DNA of 21,216 bases from Sulfolobales archaeon (GCA_038841535.1 JAWBTQ010000020.1:1-21216), one strand, 5' to 3'. Positions 1 through 21,211 are shown, numbered from the stretch's first letter. Numbers and translations: made by a program. The notes: generated from the sequence alone by a model not told the origin.

Positions 1-890
1 TCTCTTAGGTATTGCGCTAGCCTGTCTCGAGCTCCGTCCCTCTCGACCCATACCGTGAAGAGGTTGTAGACGTGCTTAACTCCAGGCTTTTCTGTCGGCA
101 GCTTAATTTGGGGAACAGACGCTAGTTCCTCTACGTACACTCTAGCGAGCTTCCTCCTCTTCTCGTTCATCTCATCTAATCTCTTAAGTTGCGAGAGCCC
201 TAAAGCTGCCTGCACGTCCGTAATCCTCATGTTCCAACCTAGCTCTACGTGGTAATAACGAGACTTCTGACCGTGGTTTCTGAGTAGCCTCACTTGCTCC
301 GCAACTCCGTCTAAGTCTGTGGCTACAGCGCCTCCCTCACCCGTAGTTATACTTTTAGTTGGGTAGAAGCTGAACGCCGCAGCGTGACCTAAGCCACCTA
401 CTTTCCTACCTTTGAACTCCGCCCCCAAGGCCTGAGCACAGTCCTCTAAGACGTGAACCTGCCTCTCACTAGCTATCTCAGCTATCTGGTCCATATCTGC
501 TGGATGACCGTATAGATGTACTGGCACTACTGCCTTAGTAGTACCACTTATAGCTTCACGTAGCTGGTCTGGGTCTAGAGTGTAGGTCTCTAACTCGATG
601 TCAACTAGCACAGGTATAGCACCAGCAAGTAAGGCGGTAGAAGCTGTAGCAAAGAAAGTGAAGTCGGGAACTACGACCTCGTCTCCCTGACCTACTCCTA
701 GAGCCTTAAGAGAGAGGTAAAGGGCTGCGGTACCGTTAGAAACAGTAGCAACGTGCTTAACCCCTAGATAACTGGCTAACTGCTTTTCGAATTCCTCTCC
801 CACCCGCCCGAAGGCTAGCATGCCAGACCGTAGAACACTTACGACGGCTTCTATATCGCTCTCAGTAATGAGAGGTGAACTGACTTTCAT
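1..890 (-). CDS. DegT/DnrJ/EryC1/StrS-family PLP-dependent sugar aminotransferase (3' end runs off the window)
   Basis: Not in the ORF track; translated by hand. It begins MKVSSPLITESDIEAVVSVLRSGMLAFG and contains VSNGTAAL, PVHLYGHP, EDCAQALGA and FSFYPTKSITTGEGG (PLP lysine). Start is ATG 890 or GTG 893, with GGTGA upstream. Confidence 0.92.
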   Translation of the reverse strand, partial: MKVSSPLITESDIEAVVSVLRSGMLAFGRVGEEFEKQLASYLGVKHVATVSNGTAALYLSLKALGVGQGDEVVVPDFTFFATASTALLAGAIPVLVDIELETYTLDPDQLREAISGTTKAVVPVHLYGHPADMDQIAEIASERQVHVLEDCAQALGAEFKGRKVGGLGHAAAFSFYPTKSITTGEGGAVATDLDGVAEQVRLLRNHGQKSRYYHVELGWNMRITDVQAALGLSQLKRLDEMNEKRRKLARVYVEELASVPQIKLPTEKPGVKHVYNLFTVWVERDGARDRLAQYLR

Positions 891-990
891 CACTTTCTGT
901 TCACCGATGAGTGCTGTGACATAAAGTAAAAAGCTTGCTAGCGACTACCTAGAGATCTTTAAGTTATTTTACGCTGTCCTAAAGTACGCA

Positions 991-1854
991 GTGTTTTTTA
1001 TAATGGCTGCTCAAACTTCTATAGTAGTGGGAAGTGTGCTAGCTAAGCTAGCTAATAGACTGCTTCAGAGTCCACTTAAGCTGATGGTTAGGCCTCTGTA
1101 CAGGCTCTACGAGAACATGCTGTGGGATCAGGTAAAGTCAGGCCCGCTGCCAAGGCACGTCGCTATAATACCTGATGGCAATAGGAGGTGGGCTAGAGAG
1201 CTCGGTATGAGCCCAATCCAGGGGCACGAGTACGGCTATAGAAAGATTAAGGAGGTCCTAGATATTCTGTGGAGGCTTGGAGTCAAGATCGTAACGGTTT
1301 ACGCGATGTCATCTGAGAACTGCGTCAAGAGAGACCCGGTAGAGAGAGACCACCTCTTCAGCTTGATCGAGAGAGCTATTAGTGAGCTGGAGAGTAGTGG
1401 TGAACTGAGTGCGAGGAGAGTGAGAGTTAAAGTTTTCGGTAGATTAGACCTAATCCCAGAGTCTCTGGTCTCAAAGATACGCGAGGTAGAAGCTAGGACG
1501 GAGCGCTTCGATGGTGGGATACTTAACGTAGCCCTATGCTACGGCGGCCGCGAGGAGATATTGAGGGCTGTCAGAGAGTTAGCTAAAGACGCTGTGTCTG
1601 GGAGGATCTCTCTTGACGGTATAGACGAGAAGACCTTTATGTCCTATCTCTACACGTCATACCTAGGAGAGCTTGGCGACCCGGACTTAGTCATAAGAAC
1701 CTCTGGTGAAGTTCGTGTGAGTAACTTCCTTCTGTGGCAGATAGCGTACAGTGAGCTCTACTTCTGCGAAGTGTACTGGCCTGAGTTCAGGACTATAGAT
1801 CTACTGAGGGCGATAAGGGACTACCAGAGGCGGGAAAGGAGGTTCGGAGCTTAA
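991..1854 (+). CDS. uppS: cis-prenyltransferase (polyprenyl/undecaprenyl diphosphate synthase)
   Basis: Motifs PRHVAIIPDGNRRWA, YAMSSEN, YGGREEI, DPDLVIRTSGEVRVSNFLLWQIAYSEL and C-terminal RRFG. The true start may be GTG 1036, because TTTTATA at 996-1002 looks like the TATA box. Confidence 0.96.
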   Translation: MFFIMAAQTSIVVGSVLAKLANRLLQSPLKLMVRPLYRLYENMLWDQVKSGPLPRHVAIIPDGNRRWARELGMSPIQGHEYGYRKIKEVLDILWRLGVKIVTVYAMSSENCVKRDPVERDHLFSLIERAISELESSGELSARRVRVKVFGRLDLIPESLVSKIREVEARTERFDGGILNVALCYGGREEILRAVRELAKDAVSGRISLDGIDEKTFMSYLYTSYLGELGDPDLVIRTSGEVRVSNFLLWQIAYSELYFCEVYWPEFRTIDLLRAIRDYQRRERRFGA

Positions 1855-1998: not shown

Positions 1999-2862
1999 CT
2001 ATAGGTTTACTTCTATTAGAACCCCCTCAACTACGTCCTTGTATCTATTCCTTATTGTTACCTCCGAGATCTCGGTGTCTCTGGATATAGCTGACTGAGT
2101 TTTTCTGATGTCTAAGAGTATCGAGGCAACATAGAGAGATGCTACAGCTACTCCCTGAGGACCCTTGCTCAGCAAGCTGCCGGACACTCTACCGGACTCT
2201 ACTATCTTCATAGCGAGAGTAGCGACTTGACTTGGAAGCCCTGCTTTTTGAGCGTATGTTAGTACGAGCGTTCTGGGGTCGTACGACCTAGACTTAGCTA
2301 TCCCGAGGTCCCTACGGATCTTCATTAACGCGTCCCATAAGTCACCCAGGGTTACACCACAATAGTTTACAACATCCTTCGTGTTTATCGGTATGTTCAG
2401 GTTCTCAGCCGCACATATTATGGATGCAGCTACGAAAGCACCGAGCCTCTTTCGACCCAGTATACCGCTCTTCACCAGCTTTCTGAGGATGAGCCCCACC
2501 TCTTCCTTAAGCCTTGCGGAGCTCGGTGTAGAGAGCTTGTTAATTATTTCGTTAGAGAGTTTTAGTGCTCTAGATAGCTTTCTATCGTCACTAGTTATGA
2601 CTCTACTCATGTTGTTTAACTCAGCAAGTCTCTTACCCACCCACGAGCTTCCGTCTATCTCCGTATGTAAGCCCATGTCGTGAACCTTTAGAGTATTCGG
2701 AATCTCACCACGCTCTCTATTGCTTGAAGGAGTGAAGGACCTCCACTCCTTACCCATGTCGACGAGCTTATCCTCGATTACCTCACCGGTTTCAGTACAT
2801 ATGTACTCACCTCTAAACTCGTCAAAAACTATCATGTCCTCTCGGCAGCTCACGCACATCAC
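1999..2862 (-). CDS. tfb: Transcription initiation factor IIB (divergent, TFB2-like paralog)
   Basis: Zn-ribbon CxxC...GEYICTETGEVI, B-reader EWRSF, two cyclin folds, GKxP-like SKGPQG, and HTH RKTQ...SEVTIRNRYK. Confidence 0.93.
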   Translation of the reverse strand: MMCVSCREDMIVFDEFRGEYICTETGEVIEDKLVDMGKEWRSFTPSSNRERGEIPNTLKVHDMGLHTEIDGSSWVGKRLAELNNMSRVITSDDRKLSRALKLSNEIINKLSTPSSARLKEEVGLILRKLVKSGILGRKRLGAFVAASIICAAENLNIPINTKDVVNYCGVTLGDLWDALMKIRRDLGIAKSRSYDPRTLVLTYAQKAGLPSQVATLAMKIVESGRVSGSLLSKGPQGVAVASLYVASILLDIRKTQSAISRDTEISEVTIRNRYKDVVEGVLIEVNL

Positions 2863-3640: not shown

Positions 3641-4462
3641 TTAAGATGGTAATGCTTTAAGTTCCTTAAGCTTTCTAAAGATCGCTAAAGTTAGAGCGAG
3701 TATTAATGCGAACGCAGCAATAGAAGAGGCTAGGAGAACTATTGGTATAGTGGGTGAGGGTTCCTGCGCTACTCCTTTTTCATCGTACAGTCTTATGCTC
3801 GTGAGGTTGAGGAAGTTTAGTTTAGATAGTTCAACCCTCATAGTGACGTCAGCACTACTCTCCATCTCACCGGATATAGACGCACTTAAGCTTACTAAGA
3901 TACCGGTCTGGCAGTCGTAGATCATCTCAGCACGAGGAGTGACCATCTTGTACTTAACGCCCCTTCCGACAGTAATGTTACCTACTTTCACCTCCTGGCA
4001 GACCTCTCCTGAGGTGTCTTCAACTATCTTATACCACCTTGCTACAGTGTTTAAAAACAGTGGGATAGAGTCCTTGCGCAACACTACATTCACGGTCACA
4101 CCCTCAGATGGGGGTACATAGAGGAGGTCGACGAAGTACTTAGTTAGGTTTGCGATAAAGAGTGGTGCTAGAACGTGGAGAAAAACTAGGTCACTGGAGG
4201 TGAGGGAATATGTTACGTTACCTGCTAGAGCACTAGCTATATAGTGTGTTCTATTCAGTTTCTCGATAACTATGTGTAGGGTATATGTACTTAGCGCCAC
4301 TCCACTAGCACCAGAAGCAGAAACACCAACTCTATAGTACACATCGTAAGCCATGTAGATCGTGTCACCTTTAAACTTGTCGAGAACGTCCCATGCGCAA
4401 CTTACGACGGGCAAGACAGTTAAAGACGCGAGCACTAGTGCCACTACCCAGGGAAACCTCAA
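3641..4462 (-). CDS. Hypothetical secreted protein with C-terminal membrane anchor
   Basis: N-terminal signal peptide, beta-rich body, several N-x-S/T sequons (NRT, NVT, NIT, NLT), a Pro/Ser linker, then a hydrophobic helix and basic tail. Confidence 0.8.
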   Translation of the reverse strand: MRFPWVVALVLASLTVLPVVSCAWDVLDKFKGDTIYMAYDVYYRVGVSASGASGVALSTYTLHIVIEKLNRTHYIASALAGNVTYSLTSSDLVFLHVLAPLFIANLTKYFVDLLYVPPSEGVTVNVVLRKDSIPLFLNTVARWYKIVEDTSGEVCQEVKVGNITVGRGVKYKMVTPRAEMIYDCQTGILVSLSASISGEMESSADVTMRVELSKLNFLNLTSIRLYDEKGVAQEPSPTIPIVLLASSIAAFALILALTLAIFRKLKELKALPS

Positions 4463-4504: not shown

Positions 4505-4553
4505 ATGATGAAGCACGAGCGGGATGAGCCGTGATTAGTAGCAAACCGACTGA
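4505..4553 (+). ncRNA. Box C/D 2'-O-methylation guide sRNA
   Basis: Box C ATGATGA 4505-4511; 12-nt guide AGCACGAGCGGG; D' ATGA 4524-4527; C' GTGATTA 4531-4537; 12-nt guide GTAGCAAACCGA; D CTGA 4550-4553. This is canonical archaeal spacing. Confidence 0.8.
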
Positions 4554-5577
4554 GCCTTTCTTAGACCACGACCATGTCGAGGATTTAAGTGGGCGGATAT
4601 ACGTTACGGTTGGTAATGTACACCCCCCGGGGGCCGTCATTGCCTACCTCAAGTACGTACCTACTCACCGCAGGACTTACTGGTGTCGCGGGTCTAAGTG
4701 CTACGAGAGGGTATTGAAGAAGTACGGCGCGGATTTCGTTCTGAGTGTAGCTAGAGATTACCAAGAAGAGATATACGACCCTTCTATTGGTGTGACAGTA
4801 CCTGTCGTTAGATTTAGGAATATCGCGTCAGTTTACAGACCCCGCGAGAGGCTCCAAGAGGTCTTGAGGAACGCGAGGGACTCCGTAGAAGTCGACGCAG
4901 TTATAGCTTACGAGAGATTGAGGGCGTGTTCGAGTGTGAACTCGGGGAGTATTGGGGTTGATGGATCTGTTGCTGTTGGGATACAGAATCCTCAGATATC
5001 GGATGTTGACCTAGTTGTTTACGGGTGTAGAGGATCTCTTGATGTAGTGGAGTCCGTTCACAGCTCTTTTGAAACTGTACCCAAGGAAGTTGAGGCAGAA
5101 AGACTCGTTAAGATGTCTGAGACGTACCGACTCCCTCTAGAGGTAGTAAGGGCTATCTCGGCTCCCTACAAGAGGTTGTACATGCGTGAGAGAAAACGAG
5201 AAGTTAACTTGCTGTTCTCTGACGACAGGTGTGGCAGGTACGGTGAGAGTGTTCTGATTCCGACCGCACTAGTAGAAGCGGAAGTTCTCGTTGAGTCATT
5301 CGACTGTCACTCACTGTTTTACCCAGGGATAGCTAGAGTGAGTAGAGTTCTAGACTTAAGAATCCTCGGGTCTCTAAGAGAGTCTAGCATTAGTACATAC
5401 AGTGGGGTAAGCAAGATAGTTACATACGAATCCATTTACTCCTACCCTCTTTACAGGGGTGGGGAGATCAGAGTTAGGGGAGTTTTGAGTATAGAAAAAC
5501 CCACTGATGAGCTAGTTATCACTGTCGGGACTAGGGAGATACATAGCTACGCTATTCCGAGGAGAGTCAGTGTTTGA
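4531..5577 (+). CDS. Archaeal Pol-beta-superfamily nucleotidyltransferase-domain protein
   Basis: GVDGSVAVG...SDVDLVVYG (GS...DxD) motif and an N-terminal GNVHPP...AYLKY block typical of this uncharacterised archaeal family. Confidence 0.78.
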   Translation: MISSKPTEPFLDHDHVEDLSGRIYVTVGNVHPPGAVIAYLKYVPTHRRTYWCRGSKCYERVLKKYGADFVLSVARDYQEEIYDPSIGVTVPVVRFRNIASVYRPRERLQEVLRNARDSVEVDAVIAYERLRACSSVNSGSIGVDGSVAVGIQNPQISDVDLVVYGCRGSLDVVESVHSSFETVPKEVEAERLVKMSETYRLPLEVVRAISAPYKRLYMRERKREVNLLFSDDRCGRYGESVLIPTALVEAEVLVESFDCHSLFYPGIARVSRVLDLRILGSLRESSISTYSGVSKIVTYESIYSYPLYRGGEIRVRGVLSIEKPTDELVITVGTREIHSYAIPRRVSV

Positions 5578-8307: not shown

Positions 8308-8550
8308 ATGAAAGAAGAAGTCTGCTACGAGCTTTACGGAGAGCATATATCTCTTAAAGAACTCGGAATATCTGTGCTTGTGTCTACCTCTTTCGCTATG
8401 CTGTTTTTCTCCGCAGCTCCCGCAGTATCCGGGGTTCTAGGGGTTCAGCCAGCAGGTATATCGATTACTCTTGGAGCTTTAGGTGCTACAATAGGTTTCG
8501 CTATTTCAGTGTTGATCTCTAAAGTCAAGAGAGTAGTCGTGGAGGTGTGA
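8308..8550 (+). CDS. Small two-TM membrane protein, partner of the downstream permease
   Basis: 80 aa with two hydrophobic segments; GGTGA RBS and upstream TTTTTATA; GTGA overlap with the next gene. Confidence 0.8.
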   Translation: MKEEVCYELYGEHISLKELGISVLVSTSFAMLFFSAAPAVSGVLGVQPAGISITLGALGATIGFAISVLISKVKRVVVEV

Positions 8551-9926
8551 GTGTGGATCCACTATCACTTTTAATGGTGCTGGTTCTCTCGGCAGTCTCC
8601 ACGCTTCTATACATATTCGTTGGGATACTTCCTGGAACCGACGAGACAGCTACTATGGCTCCAATAGCTTTAACCCTTCTACTAGCGGGTCTAGACCCGC
8701 TTCTAGTGCTAGTGTGGTTTATAGCGAGTATCGCCGCGTTTAAGATGGCTGACAGCATTCCAGTAGCTCTAGCCGGCATCCCGGGTGGCGTTATGGCAGT
8801 ACCGCAGGTTCCAGACGCAATTGTTGCTAAAGAGCAAGGTCTCGCCGACACCATACTGAGGAAGGGCATAGCTGCCAGCATAGTTGGTCAAGTAGTAGCT
8901 CTAGCAGTAACCCTCTCGATCTCGTACTACCTCATGCCGGCCGGTGACTGGCTGAGGACTGCGGACGTAGTACTCGGAGTTAAGGTAGCTAGATGGTTCT
9001 GGTTAGTGCTTGCCGGTCTCGTAGTTCTCGCACTAACTTCTCGAAGTCGTTACGTAGCGCTTATTTCCATACCATCGTTCGCACTCCTTATTCAGGGCTT
9101 GAGGGGGGTGTACGGGAGAACCATATTCGTGAGCTTCTTTCTGGGAATAACTATAGGTCCAATGCTCTTTGAGCTCCTCTCCATGCTTCACAAGGACTTG
9201 AGGCAGGCATATGCCCGCAGGGGTATGAAGGAGGTGAGATTAGTGAGAATAGGGAAGATAAGCCTCAACCCCCTCAAGATACTAAGTAAAGACGAGCTCA
9301 TCCACTGCTCTGCGTGGTCAGCAGTAACGTCTATTCTAGCGACGGTTATGTCGCCAGTAGGACTAACTATCCTCATAGGTGACTTGCTCAGGGAAAGCAG
9401 TAAAGATAAAACGAGGGGTGCGGTACTAGCTTACACTGTCCGAGACGCCATCAAGAACGCCACGTACATAGGTGGAACCCTCATCCCCTTACTCGTTATA
9501 GGAGAACCTACAGGACCCATGGCGGCAGGACCAGCCGCTCCGTTCTTTCAGAAGCTAGACTCGATCGGGATGTCACCACGGGACTACATAGTTAGTAGAT
9601 ATGATTACCCAACAGTGGTACTCATGCTCTTCATAGCGACAGCTGTGTCGTTTTTCATAGCTTACCCTGTCTTAGTCAAGTACTCGAGGAAGCTGACGTT
9701 GGCGGTATTTAGGAGAGTTCCTGCTGAAGCTCTCTACGGATTATTTATAGCTATAGTGATAATGCTGTCCTACTATGACGCTAAACTAGCTGGAGTATTC
9801 GGTACACTAGTAGTGAGCATGGTCTCGGGGGCACTGTGGAAGCTTGGGGTATCTCTAGGTGTGCTATTTATGACGCTTGTGGCTGCCCCCACCTTAGTTG
9901 GGTTACTCACAGCATTACCACTATGA
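8547..9926 (+). CDS. Tripartite tricarboxylate transporter TctA-family (DUF112-like) permease
   Basis: Polytopic membrane protein with GILPGTDETATMAP, IPVALAGIPGG and the second-half repeat NATYIGGTLIPLLVIGEP. Confidence 0.8.
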   Translation: MSVDPLSLLMVLVLSAVSTLLYIFVGILPGTDETATMAPIALTLLLAGLDPLLVLVWFIASIAAFKMADSIPVALAGIPGGVMAVPQVPDAIVAKEQGLADTILRKGIAASIVGQVVALAVTLSISYYLMPAGDWLRTADVVLGVKVARWFWLVLAGLVVLALTSRSRYVALISIPSFALLIQGLRGVYGRTIFVSFFLGITIGPMLFELLSMLHKDLRQAYARRGMKEVRLVRIGKISLNPLKILSKDELIHCSAWSAVTSILATVMSPVGLTILIGDLLRESSKDKTRGAVLAYTVRDAIKNATYIGGTLIPLLVIGEPTGPMAAGPAAPFFQKLDSIGMSPRDYIVSRYDYPTVVLMLFIATAVSFFIAYPVLVKYSRKLTLAVFRRVPAEALYGLFIAIVIMLSYYDAKLAGVFGTLVVSMVSGALWKLGVSLGVLFMTLVAAPTLVGLLTALPL

Positions 9927-10210: not shown

Positions 10211-10546
10211 CTATGCTTCAAGGTTCTCTATTATTTCCTTTACGAGTTTCTCCCTCAACTCCTGCTTCTTGATTTCGGGGAGTAGGAGTATTCTTGCTAA
10301 AACTCCCAGTAGGCGCTCTATGTTCTGAAGTCTACTGTCTAAGCTCTTAATAGTGTTAGCTAAGTCAGATAAGTGTCCATCGAAGTGCGACATCATGTGA
10401 ACTGCGCTGGCAAGCATTGACGCTACATCAGTCGCCTCCTCCTGAACTCCCAAGTGTTCACCGTGTTCATGTGAGTGTACTTCCTCCTCGCTGTGAATTT
10501 CCTGTACTAACTTGTTTACGTCTTCCTCGCTCTTCGGGATGCTCAT
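10211..10546 (-). CDS. Small hypothetical protein with His/Glu-rich patch and coiled coil
   Basis: HSEEEVHSHEHGEH and HMMSHFDGH, followed by heptads LSDLANTIKSLDSRLQNIERLL. Confidence 0.75.
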   Translation of the reverse strand: MSIPKSEEDVNKLVQEIHSEEEVHSHEHGEHLGVQEEATDVASMLASAVHMMSHFDGHLSDLANTIKSLDSRLQNIERLLGVLARILLLPEIKKQELREKLVKEIIENLEA

Positions 10547-10744
10547 CCTAACAGATTTTTTCTCGGACAGAGTCCCACCGATTAATTCTGCGATGGCGGA
10601 GTATATAGCTACAACTAGAGCCTCATCCGTAGCGTAATAAACTCCTATCTCTACCTAGATATAATTCCAACAACCTAGACTTAAGCGACAGAAGGTTTAT
10701 TACTATGTTCAAGCCGTCTCGAAGTCGAATTAAGGCAGAGTATT

Positions 10745-10762
10745 GAAAAATGTTTATATAAA
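10745..10762 (+). promoter_or_regulatory. BRE/TATA promoter of the luxE-luxC-SDR operon
   Basis: GAAAAA-TG-TTTATATA, with the TATA at 10753-10760, about 30 nt before an in-frame TTG at 10791. Confidence 0.65.
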
Positions 10763-10790
10763 GTTATTTAATATTAAGTGGGTTGCTAGC

Positions 10791-12080
10791 TTGAGTGAAA
10801 AGGATCTTCCGACTTTAGACGAAATACACAAGTACTCGACTAAGAGCAAGTTGCTGGAGGATCCATACGTAAAAAAAGTTTGGGACCTTTCCGGAGATCC
10901 GGACCTCTTCAGTAAGTCCCCTGATTACCTGGCTAAGCTGAGGCGCGACCTTTTAAGAGAATCACTGCGGTTTTTTATTAGAAAAAGCAGGTTTTATGCT
11001 GATTTAATGGAGAGACTTGAGGTGGATCCCGGGGCAGCTGAAGTAGAGGACTTAGTCAAGCTAGCTGTTCCCTCAGAACTACTCAGAGGTGAGGGATACA
11101 GGAGGCTGCTAATAGAGGACGTACTCGAAGAACCTGGTCACGTGTTCTCGTCTAGTGGGACTAGCTCCTCTATCCCCGTGAGAGTCTATAGAACATACCT
11201 TGAGCTAGCGATGATGGTTAAAGCCAACACACGGCTTTTTGAGTATGTATATGGAGGCACACTCAAAGAGGGTAGAGGCATTGCCCTGTTTCTAGCAGCT
11301 AAAGAACTCCGTAATCAGCTAAACTTTGTAGCCTTTGTAGACCTCGCACTGCAGGGAAAGAAGATACCACTAGTATATGGAATGGACTTAGTAGTTGGGA
11401 CAGGAGAGGGAGGGTCTAAGTGGACTAAACTAGTGCCAAACAAGAACAGGGTACTGGAGTTCCTTAAAAGTAAGGAAGAACCTAAGCTATTCTTCACGGC
11501 TCCAGCAGGCGTGTACTTACTATCAAAGCAGATGATTGAGATGAACTCACTTAAGAGAGTGATATATAGGCTTGCTACAGGAGCACCACCAGTAGACCTT
11601 GGTCGGGGTGGGGTCGTAGTAACCGGTGGGGGATCGAAGGGAATGGACGTACCTCCCTATGCCGATATAGTAAGCTACTCTAGGAAGGTGTTTAAGGCTA
11701 GAAACGAGAGAGGTGATCTAGTCGACGCCCCATTTATGGACGTTCTCGGCATGACCGAGACTCTCACTGCCTTAATAGACAAATACGGAGTTATGAACAA
11801 AGTACCTCACCCACTACAAGAGGTCTTCATCGTCGACCCAAAGACCTATAAGATAGTTAATGAGCCTGGTAAGGAAGGAATCCTAGGGATATACGATCCC
11901 CTCGCAGTATCATGGCTCGAGGTGTTCCTGCCCGGAGACATCGTCAAGTTCTATGAGTCCGGCAGATACTATGGAAGGGAGCTCGTTTACGTTAGGAGGC
12001 TGACGAAAGAGGAAGGATGGGACCTTCAGAGAGCCTGCGGAGGTACTATAGAGGAGATGATGAGGAGGGGAAGCTCATAG
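10791..12080 (+). CDS. LuxE-family acyl-protein synthetase (adenylate-forming)
   Basis: P-loop FSSSGTSS, TGGGSKG, DVLGMTE, PGD and RRL motifs. The only cysteine is near the C-terminus (QRACGG), the position of the acylated Cys in LuxE. Start moved from 10743 to TTG 10791 because the promoter lies inside the longer ORF. Confidence 0.82.
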   Translation: MSEKDLPTLDEIHKYSTKSKLLEDPYVKKVWDLSGDPDLFSKSPDYLAKLRRDLLRESLRFFIRKSRFYADLMERLEVDPGAAEVEDLVKLAVPSELLRGEGYRRLLIEDVLEEPGHVFSSSGTSSSIPVRVYRTYLELAMMVKANTRLFEYVYGGTLKEGRGIALFLAAKELRNQLNFVAFVDLALQGKKIPLVYGMDLVVGTGEGGSKWTKLVPNKNRVLEFLKSKEEPKLFFTAPAGVYLLSKQMIEMNSLKRVIYRLATGAPPVDLGRGGVVVTGGGSKGMDVPPYADIVSYSRKVFKARNERGDLVDAPFMDVLGMTETLTALIDKYGVMNKVPHPLQEVFIVDPKTYKIVNEPGKEGILGIYDPLAVSWLEVFLPGDIVKFYESGRYYGRELVYVRRLTKEEGWDLQRACGGTIEEMMRRGSS

Positions 12081-12116
12081 CTCTCTCCATTCAACGCCGT
12101 TAATGGAGTGTAGCCT

Positions 12117-13535
12117 ATGCCGATGATAGCGGCACTAGAACCCAGCGAGGAGTCTCTCAAGTCTCTCCTAGCTACTAGTAGGGAGGTTGTTCAGGAGCTA
12201 CTAGAGCTCGGATTCGATAGGAGGGCTAGAGTGCTTCACAGTGTGGGTAATTTGTGGAGAGAAAAGCTCGAGTCTGGTGAACTCGATGAGTTAGTTAAAG
12301 AACTTACTAAGTCGACTGGGTATAGCGTTAAAAACGTAGAGCTAGACCTCTACTTCGTCTCCGAGGTGCTTAACGAGGTGTCTCTCAGGGGGCTCTTCGA
12401 GGGCAGTCTAGTAGGCGGCTACAGGAGTATCGACTCACCAGTCGAAGTCGCTCCCGGGGAATTTGTTTGGAACAGACCCATGGGAACGGTCTTCATCATC
12501 GCATCAGGCAACAGCATGGTGCCACCAGTTCTAGCTGCTTCAACATCTATTCTAGCTGGAAATCTAACGATCCTCAGACCGTCGCAAAGCAACCTCGTGG
12601 CTGTAGGCAAGGTCTTTGAGCTACTTTCAGAGCTCGCCTCAACTGGGTCCTTTGAAGCGAGTGTGCTGAGTAGGGCTGCACAAGTTCTCTACATGAGCCA
12701 CGATAGTCCGGCCTTAAGGTACCTACTCGAAGAGGCACCACTGTCAGTAGTAAACTACTGGGGAGGAGAGCCTGGAAGGTCTAGAGTTCTATCGATGACT
12801 GTGAGAAACCCGCATAGGCCGAGAGTAGTAATTAACGGACCCTTAACTGGGGTAGCTATAGTAGACGAGGAGAGTGCTGACTCGGAAACCGCTAGGAGGC
12901 TGGCTAGAGACGTAGTTCTGTACGACCAGCAGCTGTGTAGTTCTCCAACGTTCTTGCTGTTCGTAGGGTCGCGCGAGCTCCTCTTAGACTTCACTAAAAG
13001 ACTGGCTAAAGCGCTCGATGAAGTAGGAAGTAGGTTCCCCATCGAACTCAGTGAGGGCTCTTTCTACAGGCTTCACACTTTTAGAAAGTCCTTAGAGCTC
13101 AAGGGAGTTGATGTGTTTTACTCTAGGTCTGCCCACAATCCTTGGACCCTAGTAGTGCGCAAGTTAAATGATGTCGGAGCCTTTACTACAGAATGGGGGA
13201 CTTACAGTAGGAGGGTCTTAGAGGTAATTCAAGTAGAGAGCCTCGAGGGTCTTAGCAGGGGCTTAGAGTACGTCTTGAATAAGCTTAGAAAGATGGGTGT
13301 CGACGGAGTTCAAACAGCTTCATGCTCTGTGAGTAAGGACAGACTCTCAAGCATTTTAGGTATTCTAAGCAAGTACGGGGTATACAGAGTCGTACCTGCT
13401 GGTGAGTCCTTCTTGAGGACTCCTGCCGAGCCATACGACGGTGAATTCATAGCGAAGTACTACACGTACACCGTGTACATAAGAGTGAAGGATAAGCTAG
13501 GAGAATTGGTTGCTAGAGGTGCTGGAATACCTTGA
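12117..13535 (+). CDS. LuxC-family acyl-CoA/acyl-protein reductase (ALDH fold)
   Basis: PMGTVFIIASGNS, GNLTILRPS, NYWGG, catalytic YDQQLCSSP (Cys274), VQT, and GVYRVVPAG...PYDG, a LuxC-type C-terminus. Confidence 0.87.
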   Translation: MPMIAALEPSEESLKSLLATSREVVQELLELGFDRRARVLHSVGNLWREKLESGELDELVKELTKSTGYSVKNVELDLYFVSEVLNEVSLRGLFEGSLVGGYRSIDSPVEVAPGEFVWNRPMGTVFIIASGNSMVPPVLAASTSILAGNLTILRPSQSNLVAVGKVFELLSELASTGSFEASVLSRAAQVLYMSHDSPALRYLLEEAPLSVVNYWGGEPGRSRVLSMTVRNPHRPRVVINGPLTGVAIVDEESADSETARRLARDVVLYDQQLCSSPTFLLFVGSRELLLDFTKRLAKALDEVGSRFPIELSEGSFYRLHTFRKSLELKGVDVFYSRSAHNPWTLVVRKLNDVGAFTTEWGTYSRRVLEVIQVESLEGLSRGLEYVLNKLRKMGVDGVQTASCSVSKDRLSSILGILSKYGVYRVVPAGESFLRTPAEPYDGEFIAKYYTYTVYIRVKDKLGELVARGAGIP

Positions 13536-14542
13536 GAGTACTGGTAACGGGGGCATCCGGGTTTCTAGGGTCTTACGTCGTTAGAGCTCTCGTAGAGCGC
13601 GGCTACAGTGTTGTCGGAACCTACAGGACTCCGGGAAAAGATAGGAGAGTTCTTGAGCTTGGAGCGAGAGCCGTTATGATGGACCTGCTGAACCCTGAAA
13701 CCATCAAGTCCGCAGTAAGGAATGTGGACGCTGTTATCCATTTAGCAGCGTACTACACCTTCGTAGGTAAGAAGGAGCTCTACTGGAAAATAAACGTCGA
13801 GGGAACGAGAACTCTAGCTGAAGTAGCTCTAGACTCCGGAGTTCGGAGGTTTATATACTGCAGTAGCACAGAAGCTATAGGCCCCGTCGATAATCCGCCA
13901 GCAGATGAAACAACACAACCTAATCCTCAGTTCGAGTATGGAAAGTCGAAGCTAGAAGCAGAGCGAGTGCTGGGCTTGCTTGGACGGAAGGGGTTGGAGT
14001 TCACTATTGTTAGACCCAGTGGACTCTACGGTCCAGGAAACCTCGAGGACGTTTCGTACTGGTTTATAGTTAGCTTCTCAAGAGGGGGGATCTACTCGAA
14101 GTTCATGGTTGGAGATGGTCAAACACTCGTTCAGTTTGCTCACGCTCTCGATGCTGCTAGAGCCTTCGTACTGGCACTCGAGAAGTCGAGCGTATCAGTT
14201 GGGCAGACCTACATAGTTTCTGAAGATAGAGCGTATACTTACGCGGAAGTCTATAGAATACTTGGAGAACTAGTTGGGAGAAACCCGCCGAGGTACTCTC
14301 TTCCACCAAAGCTAGCTAAAGTGCTTCTCACGTTCACTGAGCTATACGATACTGCTAGACGTGGAGAGAACCTGCTCTATAGGAGGGCCATCGTTGACGC
14401 AGTAACTAAGCACAGAGCTTACAGAATAGATAAAGCCAAGCGGGAGCTAGGGTACTACCCGGTATACGACCTAAGGACAGGATTGCGAGAGACTATCGAC
14501 TGGTATAGGTCCGTAGGTGAGCTTCCGAAAGTGGGGCGGTAG
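13532..14542 (+). CDS. Extended SDR NAD(P)-dependent epimerase/dehydratase/reductase (3-beta-HSD/OleD-like)
   Basis: VLVTGASGFLG, HLAA, NVEGT, CSS, YGKSK, RPSGLYGPG and KAKRELGY motifs. Overlaps the luxC-like stop by 4 nt (TTGA). Confidence 0.92.
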   Translation: MRVLVTGASGFLGSYVVRALVERGYSVVGTYRTPGKDRRVLELGARAVMMDLLNPETIKSAVRNVDAVIHLAAYYTFVGKKELYWKINVEGTRTLAEVALDSGVRRFIYCSSTEAIGPVDNPPADETTQPNPQFEYGKSKLEAERVLGLLGRKGLEFTIVRPSGLYGPGNLEDVSYWFIVSFSRGGIYSKFMVGDGQTLVQFAHALDAARAFVLALEKSSVSVGQTYIVSEDRAYTYAEVYRILGELVGRNPPRYSLPPKLAKVLLTFTELYDTARRGENLLYRRAIVDAVTKHRAYRIDKAKRELGYYPVYDLRTGLRETIDWYRSVGELPKVGR

Positions 14543-14603
14543 GGATAATCCTCATAGCTAGTACTACTACAGTCATCGAATGACCTAGGGCTTCCTACTG
14601 AAT

Positions 14604-15653
14604 TCAACTAATAGGCTTCAGTGCGATACTATGACGCTCTTCAATATCCGCTAACACTCTTCTGCTCGTAAATAGGAGCCCTAAGTACCCTATAAAGACC
14701 AAGACTATCCCAATACCGATTAGGGCAGTCGATAATCCCGCAACTAGCGACACTAGAGAGGATCTGAATAATTTACTCCTACTTATTTTAAAGGCATCTC
14801 GGATTACTGGGTAAGCTATTGCCACAGCTGCGAGTAGAGATACGTAGGACAGCAAGATGAATATACTGATTGCTTCCGGTGGAACTCTGCTCGCCAGTGA
14901 AGCCAGCTCGTTTATAAACTGAGTATAGGTGGTACTGAAGAGCGTGGTGGAGATAATTGAGAATGCCAGTGCTGCCCTCAATCTCAGCCTGTAGCTAGAG
15001 AATATTGTAGACAGACCTGATATTACCAAATACACGCCGATGAGGGTCAATACAAAGAAAGCACAGTACATATCCATGCTCTTAATAGGGAGCGCTGTGG
15101 ACCCAAGCCCGAGTGCTACTAGCCCAGTCAGTACTCTAGCCGTCCCCGGTGTACGGTTGGAATATGCTACCCCGTGTGTATAAGTTAAGTAGAGTGCTGA
15201 CCCAGCATAGAAGATTAGTCCGTAGAGTGCGTATAGTTCTACTGAGTACTTAGAGATGTACATGATGTTCTCTGAGTAGGGTCTAAACGGCTTTATGTCG
15301 TGATAGATAGGTGCGTCCATTAAGACATGTATAAACCACCCTACGATACCTCCCAAAACATAGGATCTAAGCGAGTCACAGTAGTTACACAGACCCAAGT
15401 CAGAAAGCAAGAGCTTAACGTAACCTCTAGCAAAGTACAATACGAAACCCACTAGAGCACCTAGAGCTACTGAAGCTACGAATGTGTGGGCGTATCCATG
15501 GAGATCGTCACCCGTCCTAGTAACTACTACAGCAATGGGCTCTACGTCAACGACAAAAACTGAGCAAATCAGGAGTGCTGCCCAGCAGACCTTTTTACGC
15601 AGGACATAACCTATTAGTAAGGCTGAGCCTAGGTGGTAAGTAGTAAAAGGCAC
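14604..15653 (-). CDS. Membrane-bound metal-dependent hydrolase (YdjM/DUF4184-like) with extra C-terminal TM domain
   Basis: MPFTTYH, VDVEP, LHGYAHTF and HVLMD motifs, followed by about six additional hydrophobic helices. Confidence 0.72.
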   Translation of the reverse strand: MPFTTYHLGSALLIGYVLRKKVCWAALLICSVFVVDVEPIAVVVTRTGDDLHGYAHTFVASVALGALVGFVLYFARGYVKLLLSDLGLCNYCDSLRSYVLGGIVGWFIHVLMDAPIYHDIKPFRPYSENIMYISKYSVELYALYGLIFYAGSALYLTYTHGVAYSNRTPGTARVLTGLVALGLGSTALPIKSMDMYCAFFVLTLIGVYLVISGLSTIFSSYRLRLRAALAFSIISTTLFSTTYTQFINELASLASRVPPEAISIFILLSYVSLLAAVAIAYPVIRDAFKISRSKLFRSSLVSLVAGLSTALIGIGIVLVFIGYLGLLFTSRRVLADIEERHSIALKPIS

Positions 15654-20506: not shown

Positions 20507-21211
20507 TTAGTACGGTACTACCAGGACCTTAGTTCCCCCAAGGTTTACCACTCCTGTCCAGGCTCTCTGGTTTTTGAGTAACTCCGGAAGCTTCCTAATC
20601 GCTATTAAGTCCTCTTCAGTGAGAGGCCCAACTCTATACATTAAAAACGCGCAGCTTAGTCCAACAACAGCCGATGCATACAGGCCCTCCATAAACCTCG
20701 CTATGGCGGTAGCGACATCTCTTTCAGAAGGTGCGCAGGATAGCGGGTGAGTGTGTGCCTCGAGTATGACTCCGCTTACGTAAGGCAGCAAAATTTTATC
20801 TACTTCTCCTTCAGCTAGGTATACGTCACCCGTCTTCATTACAAAAAGGCTGTACTCTACTCTCGACTGCGAAGTTATGTAGGCAAAGTACTTTAGCTCG
20901 CTCAGTACTTCAAGTGCGTAGCGATGTGCTTCTTCCAGTAACCTCCCAGGGCGCTTACCACCCAATCCATTAATAAAGCGGACTTCTACACCGCTATCTC
21001 TCAGCTCCTCGAGTTCGAAGATGTCTTGACCTAAGGAGCAGTTGCTGTAGTAAACCCTCACTTCTCCGTCCTCAACGTCTCCGGAGGTTTCGCATCCGTA
21101 CTCTGAAGCCAGAGAGAAAAGTCCGTCCGCAAGTAGCACGTATGTCGAGAGCTTTACTGAGCTATCTATGCGGTAAAGCCTTTCTAGCTTGCTAGTAGTC
21201 AAGCACAGCAC
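20507..21211 (-). CDS. Hypothetical protein with JAB/MPN-like metal-binding motif
   Basis: RVEY...EAHTHPLSCAPSERD. An in-frame TAG just before GTG 21211 shows the ORF is complete in the window. Confidence 0.7.
   Translation of the reverse strand: MLCLTTSKLERLYRIDSSVKLSTYVLLADGLFSLASEYGCETSGDVEDGEVRVYYSNCSLGQDIFELEELRDSGVEVRFINGLGGKRPGRLLEEAHRYALEVLSELKYFAYITSQSRVEYSLFVMKTGDVYLAEGEVDKILLPYVSGVILEAHTHPLSCAPSERDVATAIARFMEGLYASAVVGLSCAFLMYRVGPLTEEDLIAIRKLPELLKNQRAWTGVVNLGGTKVLVVPY

Follow-up and report, generated by a model that had tools for sequence, protein, structure and literature searches.

A LuxE/LuxC-type synthetase and reductase linked to an SDR in archaea, a candidate carrier-free module for carboxylic-acid reduction

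The reduction of carboxylic acids by LuxE and LuxC, which needs neither coenzyme A (CoA) nor a carrier protein, is known almost only from bioluminescence. Does this chemistry also have a place in archaea? The question is raised by a 21,216-nt stretch of DNA from a Sulfolobales archaeon (GCA_038841535.1, JAWBTQ010000020.1:1-21216; here called the window), in which three genes on the same strand, encoding a LuxE-type synthetase (gene A), a LuxC-family acyl-thioester reductase (gene B) and a short-chain dehydrogenase/reductase of the extended type (SDR; gene C), lie behind a single conserved TATA-like box. A first-pass annotation, made from the sequence alone, had read these genes as an operon that could take an acid to an aldehyde and on to an alcohol. 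The trio itself is real: when the sequence was read again, the open reading frames (ORFs), their coordinates, the cysteine codons, the motifs and the 4-nt overlap between genes B and C were as that annotation had described them. That the sequence is crenarchaeal, as it stated, fits the naming of the closest relatives in public databases, which are metagenome-assembled genomes (MAGs) of the order Sulfolobales, and its interpretation of the trio as an acyl relay is supported. Labels such as 'LuxE domain-containing' or 'acyl-CoA reductase' are already attached to some archaeal homologues in public databases, and a literature search, which left subscription journals mostly outside its scope and cannot prove absence, turned up no work on an archaeal LuxE/LuxC system. 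What is described here is a distinct sister family of LuxE, invisible to Pfam, locked to a LuxC and a specific SDR, and widespread in anaerobic archaea.

The three proteins and their relatives

The LuxC character claimed for gene B was borne out by the Pfam LuxC model (PF05893), which matched the protein at E 9.9e-31 and 107.4 bits (cut-off 21) over positions 16-392 of 401, against only 24.3 bits for the generic aldehyde dehydrogenase (ALDH) model Aldedh. The PF05893 cut-off taken alone is loose, with matches in 8 of 14 control genomes. In the PDB, the sole match below E 0.3 was LuxC itself (7xc6_A, E 2.7e-11), generic ALDHs scoring 0.32 or worse, and PF05893 was found on all 120 gene B homologues listed. 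Alignment with LuxC set vlYDQQLCssp of gene B on icfYDQQACfst. The residue paired with Cys274, the candidate catalytic cysteine, corresponds to Cys296 of the published numbering, because the offset between chain index and paper was derived as 11; this value was checked on L107, W111, M114, S118 and A121, all named in the LuxC-LuxE paper (PMC9157457). Y269, Q271 and Q272 are, like Cys274, invariant in 25 of 25 homologues, and the protein has a second cysteine at residue 403. The genome from which the window comes (83.8% complete) contains one LuxC-family gene and no match to the LuxE family, PF04443.

Gene A gave no useful match in Pfam or NCBIfam, even at E up to 10, and a search of the PDB with the single sequence returned chance matches only. 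Profile comparisons placed it more clearly. When a profile of the gene A family was compared with the PDB, the best match was LuxE (7xc6_E, E 1.7e-4), ahead of PaaK (0.17), and hhalign of the family against seven PF04443 proteins gave a probability of 99.8% and an E-value of 8.2e-29 over 357 columns (query 27-422), with the QRACGG of gene A placed on the invariant RGCA of true LuxE proteins. Judged by sequence profile, the nearest recognised family of gene A among 1.84 billion representatives is LuxE and not PaaK. The earlier description of gene A as LuxE-like holds at this level only; at the level of the Pfam LuxE model, which gives no match, it does not. Homologues are plentiful, with 179 proteins at E <= 0.001 among 8000 scored candidates. 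The 120 of these that were listed are 55-100% identical over 94-100% of their length, and come from Sulfolobales-order MAGs, Zestosphaera, Thermosphaera, Thermofilaceae, Methanomethylicia, Archaeoglobaceae, Nitrososphaeria, Odinarchaeota and Methanomassiliicoccales. Four of the 120 carry a precomputed PF04443 assignment, the Thermofilum pendens homologue bears the UniRef name 'Acyl-protein synthetase LuxE domain-containing protein', and the ESM Atlas sets gene A beside LuxE clusters. An exhaustive search of 1.84 billion representatives with the family profile returned 73 proteins at E <= 0.001, 45 at <= 1e-10 and 27 at <= 1e-30; among the 21 of these 73 that were scanned, 13 had no Pfam family, seven from the weaker tier were true PF04443 proteins and one (P0252) was a fusion.

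The LuxC-LuxE paper describes a LuxE that lacks the C-terminal subdomain of ANL enzymes and has in its stead a motif of ~20 residues, 358-TRxxKGCxLS-367, with the acylated Cys364; the enzyme depends on a Lys238/Arg355 pair, Lys238 being needed for activity, and both R354A and R355A reduce activity (PMC9157457). Gene A has equivalents of each of these residues (Table 1). Its only cysteine, Cys416, lies in QRACGG, 14 residues from the C-terminus. In an alignment of 26 family members with a mean column identity of 66%, the invariant positions include SSGT (121-124), GGG-K (279-283), GMTE (320-323), PGD (381-383), RR (402-403) and QRACG (413-417). Conservation of the C-terminal cysteine, on which the first-pass annotation had made its reading depend, extended beyond this alignment: a cysteine near the domain end, preceded by Ala or Gly, was kept in 8 of 8 more distant relatives, among them the fusion, a Theionarchaea protein and a Pseudonocardia protein. 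Since at least one of these relatives is actinobacterial, the cysteine-tailed family is not confined to archaea. Distant relatives from high-GC sequences (P0264/P0321 from Pseudonocardia sediminis, P0255 and P0258) end in REGCG(G).

An AlphaFold2 model of gene A, built from the 26-member alignment (headed by P0004, in which a single residue, 389, departs from the window protein), reached a predicted local distance difference test (pLDDT) score of 84.3 and a predicted template modelling (pTM) score of 0.87, with residues 414-429 below pLDDT 50. In Foldseek/VIA-align comparisons the best matches were the PaaK CoA ligases PaaK1/2 (2y27, 2y4o), 2-hydroxyisobutyryl-CoA ligase and BT_0428, at Z ~26 and a root-mean-square deviation of ~3 A, with 314-329 residues aligned to PaaK. 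The match is confined to the N-domain: residues 35-408 of the model align to PaaK1 7-330 and BT_0428 6-333. Whereas PaaK goes on into a C-terminal subdomain of ~100 residues and makes a CoA thioester, gene A ends, at residue 429, ~20 residues past the N-domain, in the cysteine tail. Because the model matches the ANL N-domain only and the cysteine tail is disordered, gene A has, as modelled, the architecture described for LuxE, namely an adenylating N-domain and a flexible cysteine tail in place of the CoA-handling subdomain. With only the N-domain of PaaK aligning and gene B matching LuxC, an ordinary PaaK-type ligase beside a generic ALDH, the alternative that the first-pass annotation had itself put forward, was not borne out.

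Proteins A and B are also predicted to bind each other. Predicted as a complex, the pair scored 0.73 on ipSAE (interaction prediction score from aligned errors), against 0.00 for the best control; of 157 solved complexes 116 attain the mark used, and of 215 mismatched pairs only 2 do. Agreement between runs extended to at least 74% of contacts, with partner pLDDT of at least 80. In the predicted interface, residues 313-339 of B face residues 71-106, 350-353, 364, 382 and 404-407 of A, the last of these stretches being the base of the tail. The complex with its synthetase that characterises LuxC is thus present here as a prediction. As a similar complex (7xc6) has been solved, the score may reflect likeness only and is no proof of binding. 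Besides, P0252, a metagenomic protein of 884 aa on a source contig of up to 66.6 kb, joins an A-like synthetase and a LuxC domain in one natural fusion, with a cysteine motif, RPGCGA, in the linker that precedes the LuxC part. A search for longer, fused forms of A in a set of 5.8 billion sequences found none, which is weak evidence.

Taken together, genes A and B resemble the LuxC-LuxE system of luminous bacteria (7xc6; PMC9157457) in a synthetase made up of just the ANL N-domain, which has a Lys/Arg pair as well as a cysteine on a short flexible C-terminal motif, in an ALDH-like reductase with the YDQQxC cysteine, in the adjacency of the genes and in the predicted binding of the proteins. Membership of gene A in LuxE is accordingly uneven: full-length homology, the N-domain-only form, the Lys/Arg pair and the tail cysteine are present, and its score stays short of the Pfam gathering threshold. 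The archaeal system differs from the bacterial one in that its hosts are archaea, an SDR is added and luciferase, LuxD and LuxG are missing from the window. Protein A is longer than LuxE (429 versus 373 aa), and its cysteine lies 13 residues past the second Arg, rather than 9.

The third gene had been taken for an extended SDR from its YGKSK motif, an assignment that the motifs (GASGFLG at residues 7-13, YGKSK at 136-140) and the match to PF01370 (E 4e-45) confirm. The best NCBIfam models remained under their cut-offs, HpnA (TIGR03466) at 158.7 versus 367.65 bits and OleD (NF042422) at 121.8 versus 580, as did SdmB, which was also among the nearest; these models and 3-beta-HSD act on lipids. 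Weaker matches were to thioester-reductase and fatty-acyl-reductase domains (TIGR01746, 2e-19; PF07993, 6e-19). The best solved relative, 3wj7 (E 1.1e-38), is Gox2253, reportedly an NADPH-dependent reductase of C7-C10 aliphatic aldehydes. An Arg after strand beta-2 usually accompanies NADP(H) use in SDRs, and the Arg that follows this strand in gene C suggests the same.

Linkage and spread of the trio in archaea

A survey of related loci, with one genome per species, returned 90 relatives, of which 80 loci were kept; all are archaeal, and the 69 with at least 2.7 kb of sequence downstream of A are informative about linkage. B adjoins A in 66 of these 69 and the order A-B-C is collinear in 64, with median gaps by tblastn of ~90 nt between A and B and ~24 nt between B and C. 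The synteny of the SDR, a second point on which the first-pass annotation had let its reading turn, therefore held. Departures from the arrangement were of several kinds: A stands alone in L004 and L005, with B and C side by side elsewhere in the same genomes; A-B has no adjoining C in L033 and L045; one gene on the opposite strand separates B from C in L008 and L009; and no B was found in the genome of L035.

Co-occurrence was followed in 401 genomes sampled from the phylum to which the window belongs. Of these, 40 carry A, without exception in one copy and at E 1e-170 to 1e-233, with no intermediate matches, and B is present in 36, all of them A-positive, and in none of the 361 A-negative genomes. 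Close relatives can differ: within one family, a single genus is positive in 3 of 3 genomes and the remaining genera in 0 of 13. Three of the four genomes with A only belong to one family, f16.

The trio is spread over at least eight lineages, comprising Sulfolobales/Desulfurococcaceae-type archaea, Thermofilaceae, Methanomethylicia, Nitrososphaerota and Brockarchaeota MAGs, Bathyarchaeota, Odinarchaeota, Methanomassiliicoccales and Methanofastidiosia, and it also occurs in single Archaeoglobales and Methanomicrobia MAGs. In a quick maximum-likelihood tree of gene A (70 sequences, unrooted; four cluster members of < 400 aa and loci without a full ORF left out), branches are short and clades broadly track taxonomy, with Sulfolobales/Thermofilales (support 100), Methanomassiliicoccales (support 96), Odinarchaeota and Methanomethylicia as recognisable groups. 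The gene A of one locus, L002, whose record names a Candidatus Methanomethylicia archaeon, is 72-73% identical to that of the window and falls inside the Sulfolobales-type clade, apart from other Methanomethylicia, a placement that may reflect gene transfer or a binning error.

No further gene of a bioluminescence operon was seen beside the trio. As the first-pass annotation had claimed, no luciferase, LuxD, acyl carrier protein (ACP) or fatty acid synthase (FAS)-type domain was found in a scan of the 15 other ORFs of the window, and families of the luxA, luxB or luxD type did not recur in the 80 related loci, the whole genome not having been searched for luciferase-like proteins. The arrangement that marks the lux operon, luciferase and luxD beside luxC and luxE, is thus missing from the window and from these loci. 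When the 1074 ORFs of the 80 loci were clustered, no fourth partner was conserved across lineages; the next family was a scattered ABC ATPase, in 25 loci.

Neighbours restricted to single lineages were seen, but they share no theme. Among the Methanomassiliicoccales, 14 loci have a UbiA-family (weakly MenA-like) prenyltransferase a short distance behind the SDR and on its strand (e.g. L029:11782-12738 (+) and L072:12979-13932 (-)), and in 13 a radical S-adenosylmethionine (SAM) gene adjoins on the other strand; these neighbours could represent a lineage-specific extension of the pathway. In Methanomethylicia (L010-L017, L025, L035) the trio is followed by a glutaredoxin and a fusion of the ferredoxin-thioredoxin reductase (FTR) beta subunit with rubredoxin (e.g. 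L010:5063-5413, L012:7127-7702), which in L035 come directly after A. In Nitrososphaerota/Brockarchaeota, L019:11744-12490 and six related loci have a ComB-like 2-phosphosulfolactate phosphatase (PF04029) directly after the SDR, on the same strand.

The proposed relay and its alternatives

We favour, with moderate confidence, the reading of the trio as a self-contained, CoA- and ACP-independent module for carboxylic-acid reduction of the LuxE/LuxC type. In such a module, A would adenylate a carboxylic acid with ATP and move the acyl group onto its own Cys416, on the flexible C-terminal tail; A would then dock on B, and the tail would pass the acyl group to Cys274 of B, which would use NAD(P)H to reduce the thioester and so yield a free aldehyde. 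The SDR encoded by gene C would most probably reduce this aldehyde to an alcohol. Computation supplies the homology, the conserved catalytic residues, the absent ANL C-terminal subdomain, linkage, co-occurrence, one fusion and the predicted A-B interface, while every chemical step, the role of the SDR and the substrate are inferred. Carboxylic acid reductases (CARs) and Lys2, built from adenylation, peptidyl carrier protein and reductase domains (A-PCP-R), activate an acid with ATP, hold it as a covalent thioester and reduce it with NADPH to the aldehyde, which is the same overall chemistry as that proposed here. In CARs, however, the carrier is a phosphopantetheine arm and the R domain is of the SDR type, whereas in the archaeal system a protein cysteine would act as carrier, with an ALDH-like LuxC as reductase; consistent with this, no phosphopantetheine-binding carrier domain was found in the trio or in the 83.8% complete genome from which the window comes.

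Several observations weigh against this reading. The Pfam LuxE model that misses gene A matches only one of the 26 aligned family members (2.9e-7), and gene B, at 44.2 bits, lies far below the cut-off of 750 for the NCBIfam LuxC equivalog NF052251. From these two results we conclude that neither A nor B is orthologous to the enzymes of luminous bacteria and that the substrate need not be a fatty acid. Two residues of the LuxC cleft, M114 and S118, are both Glu in B, according to our own reading of a partial alignment; the comparison of cleft residues favours neither a hydrophobic nor a polar substrate. The predicted complex leaves the cysteine tail unplaced. In the fold search, PaaK CoA ligases head the list and LuxE (7xc6_E) is absent from the 50 entries listed, an absence that we read as a weakness of the partly resolved chain and not as evidence against homology. 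Four of the 40 A-positive genomes lack B (G096, G104 and G144, which are 93-96% complete, and G178, 70% complete), and a Methanosuratincola genome has A beside a glutaredoxin and an FTR-like gene, with neither B nor C; since some Methanomethylicia-type genomes keep A without B, A may have a role of its own. Moreover, A is far more conserved than B (55-88% versus 36-90% identity), which a simple relay leaves unexplained. Finally, genomic context gives no hint of the substrate, since the lineages share no conserved neighbour beyond the trio itself.

The relay could be real and the SDR still not be the aldehyde reductase: it might prepare or tailor the substrate (a keto or hydroxy group, or a nucleotide sugar), or the aldehyde might itself be the product, destined for transamination or condensation, with the SDR acting later. 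We regard this as rather unlikely. The best Pfam family of gene C, the NAD-dependent epimerase/dehydratase family, is matched by many sugar-nucleotide enzymes, neither HpnA nor OleD is an aldehyde reductase, and the loci in which C does not adjoin A-B or is parted from B by an opposite-strand gene loosen the link; set against this are the collinearity of C in nearly all informative loci, the persistence of the B-C pair where A has moved, the overlap of B and C in the window, and the likeness to 3wj7, reportedly an aldehyde reductase. A departure of another kind would be a CoA-dependent route, with A as a PaaK-like acyl-CoA ligase, B as an acyl-CoA reductase and no acyl group on the cysteine of A. 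In its favour are the CoA ligases that head the structural neighbours, the label 'phenylacetate-CoA ligase' that some sources give to homologues, and LuxC itself, which takes acyl-CoA according to PMC9157457. The route is nevertheless improbable in our view, as A has no ANL C-terminal subdomain and PaaK is matched only to ~330, the LuxE-typical cysteine and Lys/Arg pair are invariant, and the natural fusion retains the cysteine in its linker. In PaaK-type enzymes it is the ANL C-terminal subdomain that forms the site of CoA thioesterification.

We give the least credence, and very little of it, to reverse operation in fermenters, in which the SDR and B would oxidise an alcohol or aldehyde to an enzyme thioester and A would make ATP from the thioester, AMP and pyrophosphate. 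AMP-forming ligases can run backwards in some syntrophs, and the hosts, judged by record titles, are mostly anaerobic fermenters or methanogens; yet the Arg after beta-2 in the SDR suggests, on sequence grounds, use of NADPH, no conserved pyrophosphate-linked gene lies nearby, and the LuxC branch of the ALDH superfamily is reductive, as stated in a review (PMC12041015). The ATP cost likewise makes the module probably biosynthetic and not a fermentative electron sink.

If the trio is a carboxylic-acid reduction module, what might it act on? A hydrophobic, lipid-like acid (fatty or isoprenoid) is a genuine though minority possibility, towards which we lean because the relatives of the SDR are of lipid type and LuxC-LuxE provides a fatty-acid precedent. 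A second precedent suggests, by analogy, that hydrophobic acids need not be the only candidates and that aromatic acids should be counted too. EhpF and EhpG of the D-alanylgriseoluteic acid pathway have been proposed to reduce one carboxylate of phenazine-1,6-dicarboxylate. EhpF (3hgu, 3hgv, 3l2k) is another short ANL enzyme, of ~350 aa, and matches the model of A nearly end to end (model 20-405 to chain 2-354, Z 20.6-21.1); at the level of sequence, a profile search of the PDB with gene A did not return EhpF, even with E-values up to 10 admitted. PMC11278526 shows, for the Proteus phenazine operon, ehpF ('AMP-binding protein') adjoining ehpG ('aldehyde dehydrogenase family protein'), with an SDR gene, ehpK, in the operon. 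Unlike the archaeal proteins, EhpF and EhpG serve bacterial secondary metabolism on an aromatic acid. A luciferase-less pair is also annotated in a non-luminous bacterium: polar-flagellin glycosylation islands of Aeromonas contain an acyl-protein synthetase and an acyl-CoA reductase (luxE/luxC), which are accompanied by an ACP, a 3-oxoacyl-ACP reductase, an AMP-dependent synthetase and glycosyltransferases (PMC7874193), whereas the archaeal trio has none of these companions.

A sharply bounded, very slowly evolving sister family linked to one particular SDR points to a conserved piece of archaeal metabolism. Possibly, although we hold this only tentatively, the trio is a carrier-free archaeal pathway to an undescribed primary metabolite or membrane component, such as a long-chain or isoprenoid aldehyde or alcohol, perhaps further prenylated or etherified in those Methanomassiliicoccales that have the UbiA-family prenyltransferase after the trio. 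Such a role would account for the 55-88% identity with which A is retained over the range from Desulfurococcales-type archaea to Methanomassiliicoccales and Odinarchaeia. The trio would then be the first carboxylate reductase of its type from archaea, and one that is thermostable by nature. The presence of the trio in cultured genera such as Thermofilum makes these proposals directly testable, and the proteins could supply thermostable, carrier-free catalysts for the conversion of acids to aldehydes or alcohols.

Promoter region, expression and neighbouring genes

Genes A and B are separated by 36 nt, and the TTG start of gene C overlaps the TGA stop of gene B (TTGA). The unit ends with gene C, as the next gene downstream (14604-15653) is convergent. 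The ORF that contains gene A extends 5' to 10743, a longer form that would start upstream of the TATA-like box; public homologues share the start at the position equivalent to 10791. The single promoter of the first-pass annotation, a transcription factor B recognition element (BRE) followed by a TATA box, was recovered on direct reading as a purine run just 5' of a TATA-like box (Table 1). The TTATATA core of the box is identical in the window and in its two nearest relatives (L001 and L003), the remaining spacer having diverged.

The stretch is present in 11 hot-spring metagenome runs (possibly including its source) and was matched at 95-99% identity in one metatranscriptomic library. Contigs of this library, which prove neither a transcript nor transcript ends, cover 10783-14900, one of them spanning from 11389 through B and C and further. 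No contig fell on 10300-10782, an uncovered part being by itself no finding. The start of RNA cover at 10783, 26 nt past the centre of the TATA-like box, is a weak hint of the transcription start. Between the TATA-like box and the start codon, a box TGGGTT(G/A)CT (10779-10787) is kept in the window, L001 and L003, and coincides with this first covered base.

Table 1. Positions of the trio, its promoter elements, candidate functional residues and other genes in the window
Feature	Position	Strand	Remarks
BRE-like purine run GAAAAA	10745-10750	+	Read directly in the sequence
TATA-like box TTTATATAAA	10753-10762	+	Read directly; GAAAAA just 5' of the box
Gene A	10791-12080	+	429 aa from TTG at 10791; LuxE-type synthetase, ANL N-domain only
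SSGTSSS, ANL phosphate-binding loop (residues 121-127)	11151-11171	+	Aligns with LuxE/PaaK SSGT(S/T)G; S121, S122, G123 and T124 invariant in 26/26
Lys283 codon, LuxE Lys238 equivalent	11637-11639	+	GGGsKG aligns with LuxE GGGwK (index 234-238); invariant in 26/26
Arg402-Arg403 codons, LuxE Arg354/Arg355 equivalents	11994-11999	+	vRRLT aligns with LuxE vRRLN; both invariant in 26/26
Cys416 codon TGC (QRACGG), candidate acyl-carrying Cys	12036-12038	+	Invariant in 26/26; matched in alignment to the Cys of the invariant RGCA in true LuxE
Gene B	12117-13535	+	472 aa; LuxC-family acyl-thioester reductase
Cys274 codon TGT (YDQQLC/DQQLCSSP), candidate catalytic Cys	12936-12938	+	Aligns with the Cys of LuxC YDQQAC; invariant in 25/25
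Gene C	13532-14542	+	336 aa; extended SDR; TTG start
DegT/DnrJ-type sugar aminotransferase	3-893	-	At the left end; truncated by the window edge
cis-Prenyltransferase (undecaprenyl diphosphate/dolichol type)	991-1854	+	Left end of the window
Transcription factor B (TFB) homologue	1999-2862	-	Left end of the window
ORF without Pfam family	3641-4462	-	One of six (111-349 aa)
ORF without Pfam family	4531-5577	+	One of six (111-349 aa)
ORF without Pfam family	8525-8881	-	One of six (111-349 aa)
ORF without Pfam family	10211-10546	-	One of six (111-349 aa)
ORF without Pfam family	14604-15653	-	One of six (111-349 aa)
ORF without Pfam family	20507-21211	-	One of six (111-349 aa)

Apart from the genes in Table 1, the ORFs of the window include a subtilase, TctA and major facilitator superfamily (MFS) transporters, a B3/4-domain protein, and SufC- and SufD-like proteins. 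Of the six ORFs without a Pfam family, one recurs, namely the 111-aa ORF upstream of gene A, which is shared with the two nearest relatives only.

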